From positions 1 through 64,000 of IMG/VR virus record IMGVR_UViG_2886837984_000001: a stretch of 64,000 nucleotides of DNA. One strand, given 5' to 3'. This document shows, piece after piece, positions 493-58,274 of the stretch; position 1 is the first letter of the stretch; each line of letters begins with the position of its first letter. The DNA comes from a virus (lineage: Duplodnaviria; Heunggongvirae; Uroviricota; Caudoviricetes). Below the pieces are notes generated by a model, which did not search any database, was not told the DNA's origin, and saw only the letters and a program-made list of their open reading frames with translations. A program made the position numbers and the translations under genes.

Positions 493-1926
493 TTAGTCGA
501 AGAACAGTCCGTACTCGAAGTCGGAGTCTTCGGCTTTGAGCTCATCCTCTAAAATAGAGGCGAGCAGGTTTCCGTAGGCGAGGGAAGAATATCTGTCCTT
601 ACGCATACGGCCTTTTTCCTTGAGACGGATCTTTCCGTTCAAGATCTCGTACTCAAGGTTGATCATCTCGTTGATGAGTGCGGTCGTCTGAAAGAACGGC
701 GCTAACATGCGCGCTTGCGTCTCTGAGTCGATTTTGTCGAGCTCATATTTATCTTCCAGGTAGTCCCGTCCCTCGAGGTCGTTCGCAAGTAGTTCGATTT
801 TCCCGTTCTCGATTGCGGCACGAAGTTTCGTGGCGATCGTATGGTTGATGTCGACCGTTGCTTTGACCGTATAGATGACCGGGAGAGCCATCGAGGGAGC
901 TCGTTCGGCCAACGCTTCGTCATTGTCCGACTTCCACGCCTCGTATTCGCTATCCCTCTCGTCGTCCCGTGTAACCTTGATCAATTCGTCATAGACCGAC
1001 ATCCCTAGACCGAGGGCATCGAGAACCGCCCAATCTGCTTCGAAATCATAAAAAAGACGCTTAAACATAAGCGCCTGGTAGTCTGAGTTTGCCCCGTTCA
1101 ACGAGTAGATGTTGACGATCTGTCGTTTGTACTCGCCGCCGTTAGGAAGCAACCGGATCAATGTGAAAATCGAGTTATCGTTATCTTTACCGCCGCTAAG
1201 GGCGACGTCTAGCGAGATGATTCGTTTCTCTCCGTTGACCTTCGGTATCTTCATCTTGGCGACACGTTTCACCGACGACGCGATAGTAGCCTCGTCAAAG
1301 AAGATGGCCGGTTTCAAGACTTTCCGACACTTTTGCATGTCTTCGAGACGGAAATAAGCTTTTTCTGACGAACCGTAGAACAGCGCCTCGTACTCCATCG
1401 AGAATGCGATAGGGTCGAAGTCATCCTCTTGCATCACCTGTTCGATGAACTTCGGCGGAAGCAACCCCTCATGGATCGAGAGGTTGTACTCGAGGTTGAC
1501 GGCGCAATAGTCGTCGTTCCCCTTGAACATCTGATAGGCGATCGCCTTCCATTTGTCGTACACCCAATTCGATCGATAGTGAGCGGACGTCAGGATGATC
1601 TCTGCGTTCGGCTCGACGGGGTAGTCTTTGTATTCGGTCTTGTTCTTGAATCCTGGAATCCGCTGAACGTTCAAGAACGGACGGAATATTTTGGTATAAT
1701 TCTCTGCCTTCAAAAGAATCGCTTCATCGGCCACCAATACCTGAGCACGAACGCCTCGGGCGTTTTCGTTGTTCGGTACGACGGTGATGGACGATCCGTT
1801 ATGGAAGAATACGTCGATGTTGCCACCACTGGTTTGAATCTTTTTGATCTCACGGGCGATATTCGGGTACTGCATGAGTTCCTTCTCTATCTTCTCCGTG
1901 ACAATCATCTTGGCTTGCCCTTTGGT
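493..1926 (-). CDS. terL: Terminase large subunit, exon 3. Covers the ATPase from after the P-loop through Walker B (VLVADE) and the nuclease domain.
   Basis: The first part (TKGQAKMIV...GNIDVFFHNGSSI...ARGV...LVADEA) aligns with T4 gp17 AHKGSMSAEVL...GSIELDNGSSI...VRGN...YIEDCAF. The frame is open from 1926 and carries no Walker A of its own. The region immediately upstream is intron sequence ending in G. Confidence 0.85.
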   Translation of the reverse strand, partial: TKGQAKMIVTEKIEKELMQYPNIAREIKKIQTSGGNIDVFFHNGSSITVVPNNENARGVRAQVLVADEAILLKAENYTKIFRPFLNVQRIPGFKNKTEYKDYPVEPNAEIILTSAHYRSNWVYDKWKAIAYQMFKGNDDYCAVNLEYNLSIHEGLLPPKFIEQVMQEDDFDPIAFSMEYEALFYGSSEKAYFRLEDMQKCRKVLKPAIFFDEATIASSVKRVAKMKIPKVNGEKRIISLDVALSGGKDNDNSIFTLIRLLPNGGEYKRQIVNIYSLNGANSDYQALMFKRLFYDFEADWAVLDALGLGMSVYDELIKVTRDDERDSEYEAWKSDNDEALAERAPSMALPVIYTVKATVDINHTIATKLRAAIENGKIELLANDLEGRDYLEDKYELDKIDSETQARMLAPFFQTTALINEMINLEYEILNGKIRLKEKGRMRKDRYSSLAYGNLLASILEDELKAEDSDFEYGLFFD

Positions 1927-3050
1927 CAGTTTTGTTATCGCATGGGCTTTTTATCCCTTGCTTCTACGCCTACATGGTCTCGGCGTAGCTCAGCATACAT
2001 CTTCACCCTCTAGGGGTGTCGGAGACTCGTGCCGGAATTATATTCTTCTTTGCGAAGGTTCATCCGGTATGCGTTACGATGCCGCCTGACTTTTAATCCA
2101 GGCGATTATCTCGGTATTGGGACATCAAACCATATCCTTTTACCGATATTCCCCGATCATAATCTCGGAGATTGCTCACCGAGACGGCGCCGGAAGATTA
2201 GCGTCGAAAAGTTCTTTCATGAACATAGCTTTCTTGAATTTTCTATCTAAGTGAATTTTCGAGTTGAAGTAATGAGCGTTTAAAAAACGAACAATATCTT
2301 CTCTTCTTGTAATCATTAGTTTATCGTTGTTTTTTCGTTTGGCATAAATACTCGATTTAATACCTAGCGAATCAAAATAAACTTTTAATTCGTTGAGAAC
2401 GACATCTTTATATCCCACGATTTCAACAGCGTAACGATACCGCTCATATCCCCGTTTATCTCTTCCGAACGACATATAAAGAGAACCATCTCCGTCAACA
2501 AATCCTCTAACGAAATGTTTCATCATCGCTGGGTTGATGCCGGTGAGACTCATCGCATATGTTTTGTTATGACCTATCCCGTAAGAAATTATGTCATTAC
2601 ATAATTCGGTTGAATGTATGATAATTTCGCAAGAAGGATATTCTTTACCATTAGACTTAGCTATTTTTTCTCTAACTGGAACATTAGCTTTGATGGCGTT
2701 TTTAAATTTCTCAAGATGACCCTTATCTTCGCCCTTTAAGGTTATTTTTAACGCCTTTGCCCCGGTCTTATCAATGATACAACCGTCTGCTGCGATAAAC
2801 CCTAACCAATACGACTTTTCTTCCGAGTCAATGACTTTAAAGAAATCTTTGTCATAATGATACCGAACAGTCATTCGAGAATATTTGGTATCGGTGATCC
2901 CCAAGGATTTGATTTTATGTCTCACGGATATTTTCGATCTGTTAAGAACGTCTCCGATTTCCTGAGCCGACATGTTTTTTGCATTTTCACTTAGATACAA
3001 TTCTTCTTCTTCAGTCCATTTTTTAACTTTTCGCATATATCTCCTTATTC
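1927..3050 (-). other. Group I-like intron 2 of terL. The homing-endonuclease ORF sits at its 5' end, followed by a structured core of about 250 nt.
   Basis: It lies between exon 2 (ends ...IAIVSG at 3051) and exon 3 (starts TKGQAK at 1926). The core at 1930 to 2175 is about 70% identical to intron 1 and shows compensatory hairpin changes. It ends ...AACAAAACUG followed by the exon. Confidence 0.55.
2176..3036 (-). CDS. LAGLIDADG-family homing endonuclease with two motifs and an N-terminal sigma-70 region-4-like HTH. It is encoded inside the intron.
   Basis: Motifs YWLGFIAADG and FVRGFVDGDGSL. The N-terminus EEEELYLSENAKNMSAQEIGDVLNRSKISVRHKIKSLG is HTH-like. It has its own RBS, AAGGAGATATATG. 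Confidence 0.85.
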   Translation of the reverse strand: MRKVKKWTEEEELYLSENAKNMSAQEIGDVLNRSKISVRHKIKSLGITDTKYSRMTVRYHYDKDFFKVIDSEEKSYWLGFIAADGCIIDKTGAKALKITLKGEDKGHLEKFKNAIKANVPVREKIAKSNGKEYPSCEIIIHSTELCNDIISYGIGHNKTYAMSLTGINPAMMKHFVRGFVDGDGSLYMSFGRDKRGYERYRYAVEIVGYKDVVLNELKVYFDSLGIKSSIYAKRKNNDKLMITRREDIVRFLNAHYFNSKIHLDRKFKKAMFMKELFDANLPAPSR

Positions 3051-3128
3051 ACCACTAACGATTGCTATTTTACTTTTTGGGAAAAGCACACATCTCGTAA
3101 TACAGTAAATCGCAGTCAGGAAGGATTT
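3051..3128 (-). CDS. terL: Terminase large subunit, exon 2. A 78-nt micro-exon encoding KSFLTAIYCITRCVLFPKSKIAIVSG, which supplies the Walker A lysine.
   Basis: Joining exon 1 to exon 2 gives AARGLGKS, a Walker A motif. The peptide aligns with T4 gp17 [25 protein letters not shown]. It is flanked by intron ends: ...AAAAGUG upstream, and an in-frame stop right after GGU downstream. Confidence 0.7.
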
Positions 3129-3402
3129 CACTTTTGTTATCGCAAAGGCTTTTTATCCTCTGCTTCTATATCTACATGGTCTTGATATAGGTCAGCATAT
3201 ATTTTCTTCTCGTCTAGAGAAGCCAAGGACTCGTGGGCGTCACTATGTTCTGCCAAAGCAGTTTCAGACATGCCTATGCGTTACGATATCACTCATCTTT
3301 TAAAACGAATGATTATCTCGGTGTTGGGAACGTGCAATCCATATCCTTTCACCGATATTCCTCGGTTTTCCATACTAGATCGCTCTAATAGGGGGCGAAT
3401 CC
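3129..3402 (-). other. Group I-like intron 1 of terL, 274 nt and ORF-less. It is inserted inside the Walker A codons, between GLG and KS.
   Basis: The exon 1 frame hits a stop 6 codons into this segment. The segment is homologous to the core of intron 2 with covarying stems, for example CTACGCC...GGCGTAG versus CTATATC...GATATAG. The 5' splice site follows a U, with GCCC seven nt downstream to pair with GGGU. The 3' end is G. Confidence 0.6.
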
Positions 3403-3672
3403 ACCCAATCCCCTGGCCGCGATGAACGCGGTGATACTACTGTGGAACATCATATAAATCAAAATCATCTGGAACAGCTTTAAGTCGAGACCGAAATAAT
3501 CTTTGATGAAGCGGTGTGGGTTTGCTCGATAGAAAGAACCCCATACCAAAAGCCCTTCATTCAATCTGTCGGCCTTGTTTTTAGGAAGACCGTCTTTTCG
3601 CTGCTTCTTCTCGCGAGAGTATATGTTTCCTCCGCGCTTGTCTTTGTTTCTGTTGACTTGAAACGCACCCAT
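3403..3672 (-). CDS. terL: Terminase large subunit, exon 1. It is the N-terminal 90 aa, ending ...LFQMILIYMMFHSSITAFIAARGLG.
   Basis: The sequence aligns residue for residue with T4 gp17 [24 protein letters not shown], directly before GKT. Its ATG overlaps the stop of the upstream gene. Confidence 0.7.
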
Positions 3673-4532
3673 TACTTGTCACCATCCAAAACGGACTCGA
3701 TATCGTCGTTCTTCGAACGGAGGTCGAGCGCTCGTTGCATCTGGTTGGTGAACCATTTAGTCATGTATTTCTTGATCCCGTCCACATCCTCGAAGATGTC
3801 TAATGGCTCGGGGATAGGACGCTCGTTCTCGATCTTCTCCATAAACTGACCGAAAGTGGCCGTGGAATTCTCGTCAAAACCGGTCTCCTGGAGTGGTTTG
3901 ATACGGGCATCACCCATTTGGCTCGATGCCGTTCTTTGGAGTTTTTCGTACTCAGATACATTTCCGTTAAATAAAGCTTCGTCTGATTTATGCAATGTGA
4001 TCACATAGCTTCGATAAAGGTTTCTTTTGACCGGTGTATCCGCCTCGTAAGCACTCAACATCTCTTGATACATCGCTTCTAGTTTGATCTTCTCTGCCGA
4101 ACTGAAACCGACCCACCGAGTCTTACTTGCCTGGCTCAACTCGTCGTCATCTTCTGATTCGGGGAACTCCGAGTCGTCCCATGTAAGGTTCGACATGCTG
4201 CTGATGCTGATGGATTTGAAGTAGTTCCCTAAGACCGCTTTTCCTTCCGAGCTATTTTCTGCCGCAATCCACTTGTCTTCGATAAACGGTTTGTCCATCC
4301 GTCGAAGCGTGTCGTAGACCGATACCTGGCTCGTCTCGTCAAACTGGTCTAAAATACATGTTTTACAGGTCGGGAATAGGGCGTCAGAATGATACGGGTT
4401 GGAGGATTTATAGTATTCGCTATATTTCCTCTCCTCACCGCAACAGGTACACGTCTTCAGCGTCCCGTTCTTCACCTTGCTGCTCAGACCCTTGAATTTG
4501 TCTGTGTTGACCGGTCTTGCCATGTCTGTCAC
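3672..4532 (-). CDS. Hypothetical protein with an N-terminal Cys4 zinc ribbon. It is a positional candidate for the terminase small subunit.
   Basis: 286-aa ORF with a CTCCGE...CKTC motif. It lies immediately upstream of terL exon 1 and is translationally coupled to it. It has an acidic central region. Confidence 0.6.
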   Translation of the reverse strand: MTDMARPVNTDKFKGLSSKVKNGTLKTCTCCGEERKYSEYYKSSNPYHSDALFPTCKTCILDQFDETSQVSVYDTLRRMDKPFIEDKWIAAENSSEGKAVLGNYFKSISISSMSNLTWDDSEFPESEDDDELSQASKTRWVGFSSAEKIKLEAMYQEMLSAYEADTPVKRNLYRSYVITLHKSDEALFNGNVSEYEKLQRTASSQMGDARIKPLQETGFDENSTATFGQFMEKIENERPIPEPLDIFEDVDGIKKYMTKWFTNQMQRALDLRSKNDDIESVLDGDK

Positions 4533-7395: not shown

Positions 7396-7668
7396 TTAGT
7401 TTTTGCAGCAACAAGGACTTTCGACTTTAAAACCTCTTGCTTTAACCCGCTCGGCTTGAATGTCGATAGGTTGATTTTTATTTTCTTCGAGATCTTTAAT
7501 GTGGTTTTCGAGTTCTGCAAGACGTTGCTTATATTCGCCTAAGTAATCTTTACGGTTTTGTAGCAACTCTTCCTGAAAATTAATCTCTGACTCTGTACTT
7601 CTAATTTCAGCATTAATACGTTTTGCTTCCCTTTGCAGAGTGCTAATCACGGCTTTCATCTTCATCAT
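7396..7668 (-). CDS. Hypothetical coiled-coil protein, 90 aa.
   Basis: It is the only sizeable ORF in the 2-kb non-coding hub and has a weak RBS. Its heptad-like content is charged. Confidence 0.35.
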   Translation of the reverse strand: MMKMKAVISTLQREAKRINAEIRSTESEINFQEELLQNRKDYLGEYKQRLAELENHIKDLEENKNQPIDIQAERVKARGFKVESPCCCKN

Positions 7669-8099
7669 CCTTTTCTCTTTTATTGGTTTTTAGCGCTCAA
7701 ATCAGCCTTTTCTAAGGCTAGAACTAAAAATAATCCGCGCACACCTATCTTTCAAGGCGGCGCAGATGTTGGTCGGTCAGTCCGACCTGCTTCGAAATCT
7801 ACCTAGCTAGGTTGCTGTCTTTCTGTTTTTAACGTGGAGCTCGGCTGCACCACTATTAAGTTGTGTGTGATCTTTGAGGGTGGCCGCGCGATAAGCACGA
7901 CCAATTCCCTTGTGATGCGGTATGAATAGTTGCCCGCTCTAACCGAACTCTGCGAGCCGTCTGCGCATGACAGTTTTCCTTGAGACGACGGATTTCCGAC
8001 CCAATGTCGTACTCTCCTCAGACACATAGCCCTACGCATCTGCGCCCATTCTCAAAAGTGGCTAATCCTTCGAGAATCGCGGTATGTATGATTTATGAT

Positions 8100-9350
8100 T
8101 TACAACTTGTTCGCAAACATCTTACATGTCTCAGAACGCTCATCTTGCGTGAGCACCACAATCGCACATTGCGGATCGCCTTTAAGTTTGTTCACGGCCT
8201 CGATGATGCCCGAAGATTTCACGAACGCATCGTTCGTTTGAGCGAAGTCGCCCGTAAAGACGATCTTCGAATCCTTGCCGACACGCGTACCACAGTTTCG
8301 AATTTCTTTTAAACTCAAATCCGAACACTCGTCCACCAAGATCAATGTCGAATCCATCGATAAGCCTTTGACAAAGCTGATTTCGTGTTTCGTGAGCTGT
8401 CCGTTCTCCGACATATGTACAGGGTCTTGGATAGGGTCGTCTAAATGTTGTACGAAAGTCTCGTAGAACACGCCCATCTTCTCGTCCATGTCGCCAGGTA
8501 GGAATCCGACGCTCGATACATCTGCTTTACGCATGAGTGCGATCCGACCAAAGTCGCCTTTTCGAATCGTTTTCTCTTGCGCCATCTTCACCGACATCAT
8601 CGTCTTGCCTGAGCCAGCCAATCCTAAGATGAATACCGATGTGATATCCGGGTTGTTCAAAGCATCCAACGCACAAGCTTGTTCGGCGTTACGCGGTTTG
8701 ACGACACGATATTCGGGGAGTTTGATTTCCACGAACGACTCGCCGTTCCAACGTCGCACCATCTCTTTGAATTTCTGTTGTGACGGGTCGTCGATGATAA
8801 CATATTGGTTGATCTCCAACTTCATCTCATCTGCCACCGTCTTGTCGTCCATCCATACTCGGTCGATCAACTCTGCTTCCACGTCATCGTTCGGGTCGAG
8901 TTTTGTATATCCCTTGTATGAATACACATCCGTCGACACTTGCTGAAGCTGTTTTACTTCGACTCCGAATCCATGCGCTTGAATCCCGAGCAACATATCT
9001 TCCGTAATCAATCCGTACTCAGGGTTTTGAAGCAGACACTCTAAGAATTGGTTGTCCACATACTGTTCATCATATTCGCCGTGTTCAAGTAGCTTGTTCA
9101 ATCGATAAGGTTTCGTGTTGTACTCGAGACGGTCTTGATGTAACGTCAACCAATGCTGTGCGACACGCGCACGATAGGCTAGGTCACTCGACCGTGACGA
9201 CTTGTGTTTCTCGATCTCTCGTAAAAGCATGGTCGTCACGACGACCTCATTCGGATTCAAGGCGCTGATGTTATTCAGCACCACATTCGTATCGACTACA
9301 AACTTCTTCATCTTCGTTTCGGTCGTCATCATGTTATCCCCGATCATCAT
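8100..9350 (-). CDS. phoH: PhoH-like ATPase with an N-terminal PIN domain, the PhoH2 or YlaK type.
   Basis: PIN motif KKFVVDTNVVL. PhoH Walker A GLAGSGKT and LILVDECS. Confidence 0.8.
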   Translation of the reverse strand: MMIGDNMMTTETKMKKFVVDTNVVLNNISALNPNEVVVTTMLLREIEKHKSSRSSDLAYRARVAQHWLTLHQDRLEYNTKPYRLNKLLEHGEYDEQYVDNQFLECLLQNPEYGLITEDMLLGIQAHGFGVEVKQLQQVSTDVYSYKGYTKLDPNDDVEAELIDRVWMDDKTVADEMKLEINQYVIIDDPSQQKFKEMVRRWNGESFVEIKLPEYRVVKPRNAEQACALDALNNPDITSVFILGLAGSGKTMMSVKMAQEKTIRKGDFGRIALMRKADVSSVGFLPGDMDEKMGVFYETFVQHLDDPIQDPVHMSENGQLTKHEISFVKGLSMDSTLILVDECSDLSLKEIRNCGTRVGKDSKIVFTGDFAQTNDAFVKSSGIIEAVNKLKGDPQCAIVVLTQDERSETCKMFANKL

Positions 9351-16436: not shown

Positions 16437-16710
16437 ATGTAAAGCAATTCTTTGTATATGTATTTATAATAGGCATATCTTCTATATACAAGGATTTGCT
16501 TTACATTTAAAAACGCTCTATTCTTTTCCACTCAGCGTTCTGTTTCACAGAAGCGCTTCGTGTACTCAATTCGCTACGCTCATTTCGTTATATTTTTATT
16601 TTTATAGTCAATTATCTATATACCATATAGGTTTTTATGTAAAGCAAATCTTTGTATATATAAAACAATTATATATATATCTTTCTATACAAGGATTTGC
16701 TTTACATAGA
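16437..16710. repeat. Two direct copies of a 70-bp palindromic element. The arms are ATGTAAAGCAA(T/A)TCTTTGTATAT and TATACAAGGATTTGCTTTACAT, around an AT-rich 24-nt spacer.
   Basis: Copy 1 is about 16439 to 16508 and copy 2 is about 16633 to 16707. A further inverted repeat, TTATTATCTAT...ATAGATAATAA, lies at 16893 to 16930. The region is AT-rich and sits at a strand switch. Confidence 0.5.
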
Positions 16711-57825: not shown

Positions 57826-58074
57826 GTGAGAGTGGTTGATTATTTGATTGAGTTGTCACCGCAGTTAAAACGGAAGACACGGCTCGATATTTATCCGTTG
57901 TCTCTTGAAATTATTAATATCCGAGTAAAACGAAACATGTCGCAAGAAGAATTGGCAGATGATCTTGGTATTGAAGTGTCCGCTTTAGCAAAGTATGAAT
58001 TCGCTGATGAACAATATGGTATAGATGAGTATAAGATGTTTCTAGAAAGACTTAAATTATCCGAGAAAAAGTGA
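57826..58074 (+). CDS. XRE-family HTH DNA-binding protein.
   Basis: GTG start with ATAGGGGTGATAAA upstream. The HTH is MSQEELADDLGIEVSALAKYE. Confidence 0.5.
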   Translation: MRVVDYLIELSPQLKRKTRLDIYPLSLEIINIRVKRNMSQEELADDLGIEVSALAKYEFADEQYGIDEYKMFLERLKLSEKK

Positions 58075-58097
58075 CTTTATAGGAGGTGGCAAAGTAA

Positions 58098-58274
58098 GTG
58101 AAACAAACATCGCGAGTACAATGCCCGAAGTGCCAGAAGTTTCAAGAAGATATGATTTATGATCTAGTAGAAGCCGGAGAGATGGAGGGTAGTTTTGAAA
58201 TGGAATGTGAACATTGCGAAACTGTCTTTTTGGTAAAATATACGTTTAAGCCATATGTAGAAACAATTCAATAA
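58098..58274 (+). CDS. Small zinc-ribbon protein, 58 aa.
   Basis: RBS TAGGAGGTGGCAAAG with a GTG start. CPKC...CEHC. Confidence 0.4.
   Translation: MKQTSRVQCPKCQKFQEDMIYDLVEAGEMEGSFEMECEHCETVFLVKYTFKPYVETIQ

Follow-up and report, generated by a model that had tools for sequence, protein, structure and literature searches.

A large terminase gene in three exons

We analysed a 64,000-nt stretch of viral DNA (positions 1 to 64,000 of IMG/VR record IMGVR_UViG_2886837984_000001; hereafter the window), in which the gene for the large terminase subunit (terL) lies on the minus strand and is divided into three exons by two inserts that, by their sequence and conserved pairing, are assigned as group I introns. 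A sequence-only reading of the locus had proposed a terminase gene interrupted in this way. The features are as follows, with positions numbered along the window.

3403..3672, minus strand: terL exon 1, 90 codons (M1-G90), ending GCC AGG GGA UUG GGU (A R G L G)
3129..3402, minus strand: intron 1, assigned as a 274-nt group I intron with no open reading frame (ORF), between the Gly and Lys codons of the Walker A motif (site 1)
3192..3368, minus strand: catalytic core of intron 1, from the P3 5' strand to the P7 3' strand, with P7 A(C)GCAUA/UAUGCU (bulged C) and P3 CCGAGG/CCUUGG
3051..3128, minus strand: terL exon 2, 78 nt, 26 codons (K91-G116, KSFLTAIYCITRCVLFPKSKIAIVSG), carrying the Lys-Ser of Walker A
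1927..3050, minus strand: intron 2, assigned as a 1124-nt group I intron, between SG and TKG, 26 codons past the intron 1 site (site 2)
2176..3036, minus strand: LAGLIDADG homing endonuclease gene, 286 aa, with an AAGGAG ribosome-binding site 6 nt before the ATG
493..1926, minus strand: terL exon 3, T117-D593 plus the stop, starting TKGQAKMIV and carrying a Walker B-type VLVADE and the nuclease domain

Read without splicing, the frame of exon 1 runs past AARGLG through GFAPY into a stop at the sixth codon (ORF 3385..3672, 95 aa), and intron 2 begins GAA UAA, with a stop two codons in. Joining the 270 + 78 + 1434 nt of the exons gives, on translation, a 593-aa protein with a Walker A motif AARGLGKS and a Walker B-like VLVADE. 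Both junctions lie between codons, both 5' exons end in U (GGU) and both introns end in G. Sliding the junction by one base at either site leaves the protein unchanged, and a U before the 5' splice site together with a G at the 3' end occurs only at the boundaries chosen in the sequence-only reading. The particulars of that reading were borne out: the stop six codons past AARGLG, the exact coordinates of the 78-nt piece at 3128-3051 and of the TKGQAK frame from 1926 (by translation and tblastn), the Walker A motif recreated by the three-piece join with its Lys on the 78-nt exon, the first intron inside the P-loop codons (between the G and K codons), and the phase 0 junctions with U before each 5' splice site and G ending each intron.

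A tblastn search of the whole window with an intact homologue (P0001) returned exactly three significant pieces, at 3672-3403 (P0001 residues 1-89), 3128-3051 (residues 90-115, E 1.4e-9, 85% identity) and 1941-496 (residues 111-595), and detected no second terminase anywhere in the window. This three-piece layout is far above chance. The joined protein is 76, 73 and 63% identical to the uninterrupted homologues P0001, P0002 and P0004, respectively, and the alignments are gapless at both junctions, as in the example IIAARGLGKSYLTAIYCITRCVLFPKSKVALLSGTKGQAKMIVTEK. Two intron-less alleles (L138 and L139) read GGACTTGGT AAATCA at site 1 and TCTGGG ACAAAAGG at site 2, the intron-less site sequence being TCTGGGACAAAAGG.

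Homology searches on the in silico join identified it as a large terminase, as had been proposed. Pfam Terminase_6N covers residues 83-195 of the joined protein, spanning both junctions, with 36.4 bits (cut-off 22), and Terminase_6C matches weakly (17.3 bits, under its cut-off); the PHROG matches are phrog_26582, phrog_24618 and, at E 2e-26, phrog_2 (terminase large subunit). Across 98% of its length the joined protein shares 42% identity with SPbeta YonF, and its nearest phage relatives are SPbeta-type terminases of the YonF kind (42-44% identity, with 95-98% of the length aligned). The family profile matches the structures of T4 gp17 and G20C TerL, the ATPase domain of gp17 (chain residues 75-260 and 100-283) aligning with profile positions 5-191 at E 0.0015-0.009, so that the colinearity with T4 gp17 claimed from the sequence is supported at the profile level. 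Searched against PDB sequences with phmmer, the joined protein matched no terminase, whereas the family profile did. Megablast of the region against phage genomes gave merely a trivial 34-nt match, and a scan of genome contigs for terL relatives returned only proteins of at most 46% identity, together with a same-site intron in Terrisporobacter. The GC content is 41% over positions 2001-4000 compared to about 50% in the flanks. The gene is a YonF/SPbeta-type large terminase in three exons.

One could suppose that no RNA splicing takes place and that each piece is translated on its own, the products then assembling as a split terminase, and gene callers do give separate ORFs of 95 and 471 aa. 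We give this next to no credence. Exon 2 has neither a start codon nor a ribosome-binding site and stands in a frame that is closed at either end; the 471-aa ORF has its start at the internal M123, which leaves T117-K122 and exon 2 unexpressed and the Walker A Lys lost; and both inserts genuinely belong to a ribozyme family, as described below. The automatic annotation has a practical cost, since gene callers report terL as two hypothetical proteins (95 and 471 aa) and an endonuclease and lose the exon with the Walker A lysine. The same mis-splitting is found in deposited phage genomes, for example that of Mammaliicoccus phage phi127.

The two inserts and their intron family

We used a covariance model of the intron core (R2), with P3 left unpaired, whose seeds were the terL intron of Lactobacillus delbrueckii phage JCL1032 and five viral contigs from IMG/VR. 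Excluded from the seeds were the window and L001, a 123-kb Logan contig (SRR3311145) with ~82-86% nucleotide identity to the window and 96% identity within its 414-aa terL fragment. R2 matched the intron 1 core at 3368-3192 (87.8 bits, E 1.8e-19) and the intron 2 core at 2159-1990 (113 bits, E 1.4e-25), both over the full length of the model, with E-values that are rough because the model is home-made. In the 64-kb window it found nothing significant beyond the two introns; chance-level matches at 16532-16650 (minus strand) and 58013-58115 (plus strand), of about 10 bits and E 0.8-1.0, were not regarded as introns.

All core helices from P3 to P8, including the P3/P7 pseudoknot, were located in both introns. 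Intron 1 starts GGAUU-C-GCCC, composed of a P10 guide (GGAUU, 3402-3398) and the internal guide (GCCC, 3396-3393), and ends in its terminal G at 3129. By inspection, P1 is formed by exon GGGU and GCCC, which meet in a U•G pair at the splice site, and a P10 of 5 bp is formed by GGAUU and the AAUCC at positions +2 to +6 of exon 2 (3127-3123). The helices then follow in the order P2 (GCGA loop), P3, P4, P5, P6, P7, an extended P7-P3' hairpin, P8, P9 and P9.1, ending with the tail GAUAACAAAAGUG. Intron 2 has the same set of helices, with P7 A(C)GCAUA/UAUGCU, its internal guide GCCGU at 2188-2184, its core at 2159-1990 and its terminal G at 1927; exon GUGGU pairs with GCCGU, on inspection, again with U•G at the splice site, and P10 is a weak 2-bp GG/CC that covaries to UG/CA in L001. 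In ViennaRNA the minimum free energy (MFE) z-score was -3.85 for intron 1, the fold recovering P2, P3, P4, P5, P6, P8, P9 and P9.1, and -5.04 for the core of intron 2. The two introns are 69% identical to each other and their 3' tails are nearly the same (GCGAUAACAAAAGUG and GCGAUAACAAAACUG). The 3' part of intron 1 also resembles introns in >100 phage records, the JCL1032 terL intron among them.

Pairing was counted over 100 aligned family members, with slid partners as the control. Stem cells were paired in 89.9% of cases compared to 30-38% in the slid controls, double-change cells numbered 941 against at most 193, with 33 of the 35 pairs changing on both sides, and the covariation score was 0.60 against at most 0.10; for helices other than P3 these counts were made on a model-fitted alignment. 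P3 is an unbiased test because it was left out of model R2: 71.7% of its cells were paired, and double changes occurred at every one of its six pairs. At P7, the pair across the bulge was A-U in 55 members and G-C in 42, and the next two positions kept G-C in 94/100 and C-G in 93/100. Judging from the general architecture, the bulge region of P7 would form the guanosine-binding site. A structure-blind MAFFT alignment of the six seeds also left P3, P4, P6, P7, P7.1, P9 and P9.1 fully paired with differing sequences.

The comparison with L001 bears on the window itself. A total of 25 stem pairs differ between the two, of which 11 are compensated on both sides, 9 are compatible one-sided changes and 5 are unpaired in one of the two; intron 2 alone shows nine double-compensatory stem changes relative to its L001 copy, and the L001 orthologue of intron 1 likewise retains its stems by compensatory changes. 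We take these changes to show directly that selection acts on the RNA structure in the window/L001 lineage.

Of the elements expected in subgroup IA2, a covarying P7-P3' hairpin (>99% paired) and a P9.1 hairpin were seen, but the former did not resolve into separate P7.1 and P7.2 stems. An intein or a group II intron was ruled out by the stop codons of the inserts in the exon frame, the 274-nt size of intron 1 and the group I-type core matches. At least 120 IMG/VR contigs contain the conserved 3' motif GATAAAAAGC-N5-CGATAAC, and R2 recovers 100 cores from viral contigs at E up to 0.001. By all these sequence features, both inserts are members of one widespread phage group I intron family, which is frequent in the phages of Firmicutes.

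Intron 2 also carries the endonuclease gene. The ORF follows the 5' splice site and precedes the guide, which is 860 nt downstream, and the ORF can be placed in the P1 loop because the L001 intron copy at the same site (275 nt) is ORF-less. The protein matches Pfam LAGLIDADG_3 (48.3 bits, cut-off 22.5, E 1.2e-12), LAGLIDADG_1 (31.4 bits, cut-off 23.1, E 3.7e-7) and the PHROG endonuclease family phrog_4645 (E 2.8e-46), and its translation shows two motif-like stretches, LGFIAADGC and VRGFVDGDGS. It is identical in sequence to WP_131456962.1, a LAGLIDADG family homing endonuclease of Exiguobacterium sp. SH5S4 encoded on a 121-kb contig. Presumably it cuts intron-less terL alleles and drives homing. 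At 2174-2188 (minus strand) the 3' end of the endonuclease gene (six codons and the stop, CUU CCG GCG CCG UCU CGG UGA) overlaps the guide (the P1 3' strand) and the P2 5' strand; because of this overlap, translation and ribozyme folding should interfere with each other.

Predicted splicing and its alternatives

With a probability of about 0.9, we consider that the two inserts are group I introns that splice themselves out, or are at least of ribozyme type, and that the packaging ATPase can be made only once they have been removed. Each ribozyme in the pre-mRNA would fold into a P3-P9 core, and its internal guide would form P1 with the last bases of the upstream exon, placing the U•G pair at the splice site. 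A guanosine would attack the 5' splice site, and the freed exon would then attack behind the intron's terminal G. Carried out at both introns, these reactions would join the exons into one 593-aa frame with an intact AARGLGKS P-loop, whereas translation of unspliced RNA would terminate after at most 95 codons and give no ATPase.

Several points weigh against this interpretation. The P1 helices are short (4 bp in intron 1; 5 bp with three wobbles in intron 2), the P10 of intron 2 is just 2 bp, and the P1 of intron 2 spans an 860-nt ORF that overlaps the guide and P2, so that translation and folding may compete. The E-values of R2 and the counts for helices other than P3 carry the limits given above, and the prophage could be defective. 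The structure of the gene, the family membership of the inserts, their conserved RNA structure and the repeated use of both sites are shown here; splicing, its efficiency and the activity of the endonuclease are things that we infer. The inserts also failed the formal test that had been proposed for them, a cmscan with Rfam models: no group I intron was matched at the gathering score in the window or at E up to 10 in positions 1800-3500, and at the gathering score there was no Rfam match of any kind in the window. A control Rfam scan (E up to 1) missed the two family introns of L001 and those of JCL1032 terL (L002), an Oenococcus phage (L003) and Staphylococcus phage 6ec (L004), while the same scan detected a third intron of L001 at 68.6 bits. 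Since the JCL1032 terL intron, which is annotated as spliced, is missed as well, the negative result reflects the model rather than the sequence, and the check is uninformative. A dedicated model would repair many split phage genes, because the Rfam group I model misses a family found in at least 120 IMG/VR contigs.

A rival reading is that the terminase is dead, lying in a decaying prophage, with inserts that are non-splicing remnants of mobile elements and with packaging lost or supplied by another gene. Consistent with this, NCBI names just the endonuclease at the locus, and P1 and P10 of intron 2 are short. We regard it as quite improbable, however, since the three exons are intact, in frame and 63-76% identical to intact homologues without gaps, all core helices are intact in both introns and show compensatory stem changes relative to L001, the window holds no second terminase, and the same arrangement is retained in L001.

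Large terminase genes with several group I introns have been described in Bastillevirinae (PMC11878797, 2025), with two introns in phiAGATE and three in SIOphi, and the supposition of the sequence-only reading that a twice-interrupted terminase was undescribed is not supported, given these genes; the G/K insertion site, too, was known, from JCL1032 (a slash within a protein motif marks the insertion point). SIOphi terL was spliced in vitro as well as in vivo; only spliced transcripts were seen in vivo, and the dominant product in vitro lacked one internal exon. The terL of phiAGATE was negative in vitro and spliced in vivo only (PMC11878797). The same study reported a small internal exon in another gene and noted exon skipping for Twort orf142 (PMC11878797). 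The likeness to the window is that of a multi-intron large terminase. The Bastillevirinae are Herelleviridae myoviruses with an unrelated TerL family (phrog_675), and their terL introns are mostly of IA type and in many cases contain a gene for a homing endonuclease. The introns were detected by means of group I subgroup models and are reported to align well to RF00028, which does not match the introns of the window.

Exon skipping of the SIOphi kind raises the question of whether the phage uses, or tolerates, splicing as a point of control. If the 5' site of intron 1 were joined to the 3' site of intron 2, the in-frame 78-nt exon would be skipped and the terminase would lack residues 91-116, the P-loop lysine among them; alternatively, slow splicing could delay packaging. 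The introns are paralogous with near-identical 3' tails, the length of 78 nt is divisible by 3, intron 1 has a guide that starts GG and could pair with the CC of exon 3 like the P10 of intron 2, and skipping has the precedents of SIOphi terL in vitro and Twort orf142 (PMC11878797). However, the P10 of intron 1 is 5 bp with exon 2 compared to 2 bp with exon 3, and correct splicing is favoured because the pairing with exon 2 is the longer. An ATPase without its P-loop has no evident use, and SIOphi shows only spliced transcripts in vivo. We therefore judge such control unlikely.

A broader proposal is that the P-loop stretch of SPbeta-type terL is a hot spot for one intron family (with internal exons of 78 nt here and 6 nt in contig L203, described below), that the ATPase would need ordered, compatible splicing of neighbouring paralogous ribozymes, and that the fidelity or timing of this splicing could switch DNA packaging. 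We hold this to be improbable as a whole; if it were true, splicing could act as a DNA-packaging switch and not as the neutral repair of a parasitic insertion.

The reading that we prefer, of two introns removed to give the terminase, has a close parallel in phage JCL1032. A passage of PMC6669764, which cites Riipinen and Alatossava (2004), names JCL1032 as the one Lactobacillus phage proven to have self-splicing group I introns. In record NC_019456 (Lactobacillus delbrueckii phage JCL1032), terL is annotated as a two-piece join. The intron belongs to the same family as those of the window, being a seed of R2 (137.8 bits), and it has the same P7, P9.1 and 3' tail. It is reportedly one of two JCL1032 introns that Riipinen and Alatossava showed to self-splice in 2004. 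The insertion site, GRKNG/KT in JCL1032 and ARGLG/KS in the window, is at the same Gly/Lys point; the exon ends GGU and the intron ends G, and P1 (6 bp) and P10 are formed from a guide at the 5' end of the intron in the same layout. The JCL1032 terminase is of a different TerL lineage and has a single 226-nt intron with no ORF.

A second parallel is the pair TMP-IVS1 and TMP-IVS2, paralogous IA2 introns that are 80% identical and interrupt one tape-measure gene in Bacillus cereus-group prophages, with conserved cores and a P1/guide diverged to fit the two sites (PMC2504315). This pair is like that of the window in its in-frame insertion, in the stop soon past the 5' splice site and in the two related introns per gene; its host gene is a tape measure, unlike terL. 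A literature search combining group I introns, terminase and Walker A gave nothing relevant. Both insertion sites and multi-intron terL are already known from other phages, and the locus reveals no new mechanism. It adds an SPbeta-type example to a pattern seen before, the insertion of group I introns at the most highly conserved codons of enzymes that phages cannot do without.

Occurrence in other phages and source of the window

Both insertion sites are used recurrently. Site 1 (G/K of Walker A) is occupied in L001, a Terrisporobacter mayombei prophage (L137), Mammaliicoccus phage phi127, L203 and JCL1032; site 2 (SG/TKG) is occupied in L001 and in the IMG/VR contig L208 (ASG/TKGQAR). In phi127 (PV389080.1) the intron, at ASRGLG/KSFLSAIY, scores 104 bits, and the annotation of the locus gives hypothetical proteins and an endonuclease only, with no intron. 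The Terrisporobacter intron precedes /KSFLTAVF and carries a LAGLIDADG ORF. Phi127, L137, L203 and L208 share with the window the TerL family, the intron family and the sites, and their inserts are not annotated as introns; phi127, L137 and L208 each have one of the window sites filled, L203 being the exception with two introns 6 nt apart. Among close relatives, P0001, P0002 and P0004 lack an intron, P0125 and P0128 (which start M+KSYLTA) have intron 1 only, and a further intron is found at LLK/AENY in P0003, P0005 and L001. This variable occupancy among relatives indicates that each site was gained or lost independently, as expected of mobile introns.

The further intron of L001, at ~7660-8030, is its third in terL and lies after the Walker B-like motif at ADEAILLK/AENY, a point that corresponds to position 1707 of the window, where there is no insert. 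It is of a different class (RF00028, 68.6 bits). The join that restores the protein, AAG/GCU or AAGG/CUG, has no U at the 5' site, and boundaries that obey the U/G rule would add two residues (KVISEN).

At 4151-4699 of L203 (IMGVR_UViG_2901982107_000001; L204 is identical), an SPbeta-type terL is interrupted within its P-loop codons by two tandem family introns of 273 and 270 nt, with an exon of just 6 nt between them (CAAGGT, Gln-Gly, 4424-4429). That this exon is required follows from an intron-less allele 97% identical to L203 (L157), which reads GGA CAA GGA AAG AGC (G Q G K S). The 6 nt would have to pair twice, with the first intron in P10 (UUG/CAA) and with the second in P1 (AGGU/GCCU).

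Five other contigs (L099, L093, L028, L010 and L031) hold two or three family cores each, ~0.2 to 5 kb apart, and from this clustering multiply interrupted genes or gene clusters seem to be common for the family. In four further members (L026, L066, L082 and L105) the insertion, as read from the 3' exon alone, adjoins P-loop codons: /GKTTTA, /QGKSFLIAIF, /KSTGKSDS and /KTGKTST, the /QGKSFLIAIF member being an SPbeta-type terL interrupted two codons upstream of site 1 of the window. From these sequences, the P-loop-coding DNA of ATPases looks like a recurrent intron target. The P-loop region of the terminase holds at least three recurrent homing sites.

The genes that neighbour terL in the window match SPbeta-phage (Yon-type) families through PHROG and metallophosphatase matches, the corresponding positions of L001 being occupied by YonG, YonJ, YonK, YonD and YonB, and the window also encodes PhoH, a RecD2-like helicase and an MrpR-like protein. 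These Yon-type neighbours and other genes mark the window as an SPbeta-like prophage or phage, and its source is Exiguobacterium sp. SH5S4. At 8100-9350 (minus strand) the window encodes a single 416-aa PIN_4 + PhoH protein; at the matching place in L001 (709-1938), PIN_4 (196 aa) and PhoH (201 aa) are separate genes. L001 also carries, at 2425-2533 and 3952-3988, a DUF3800-I RNA (58.7 bits, above the gathering score) and a sub-threshold abiF RNA.

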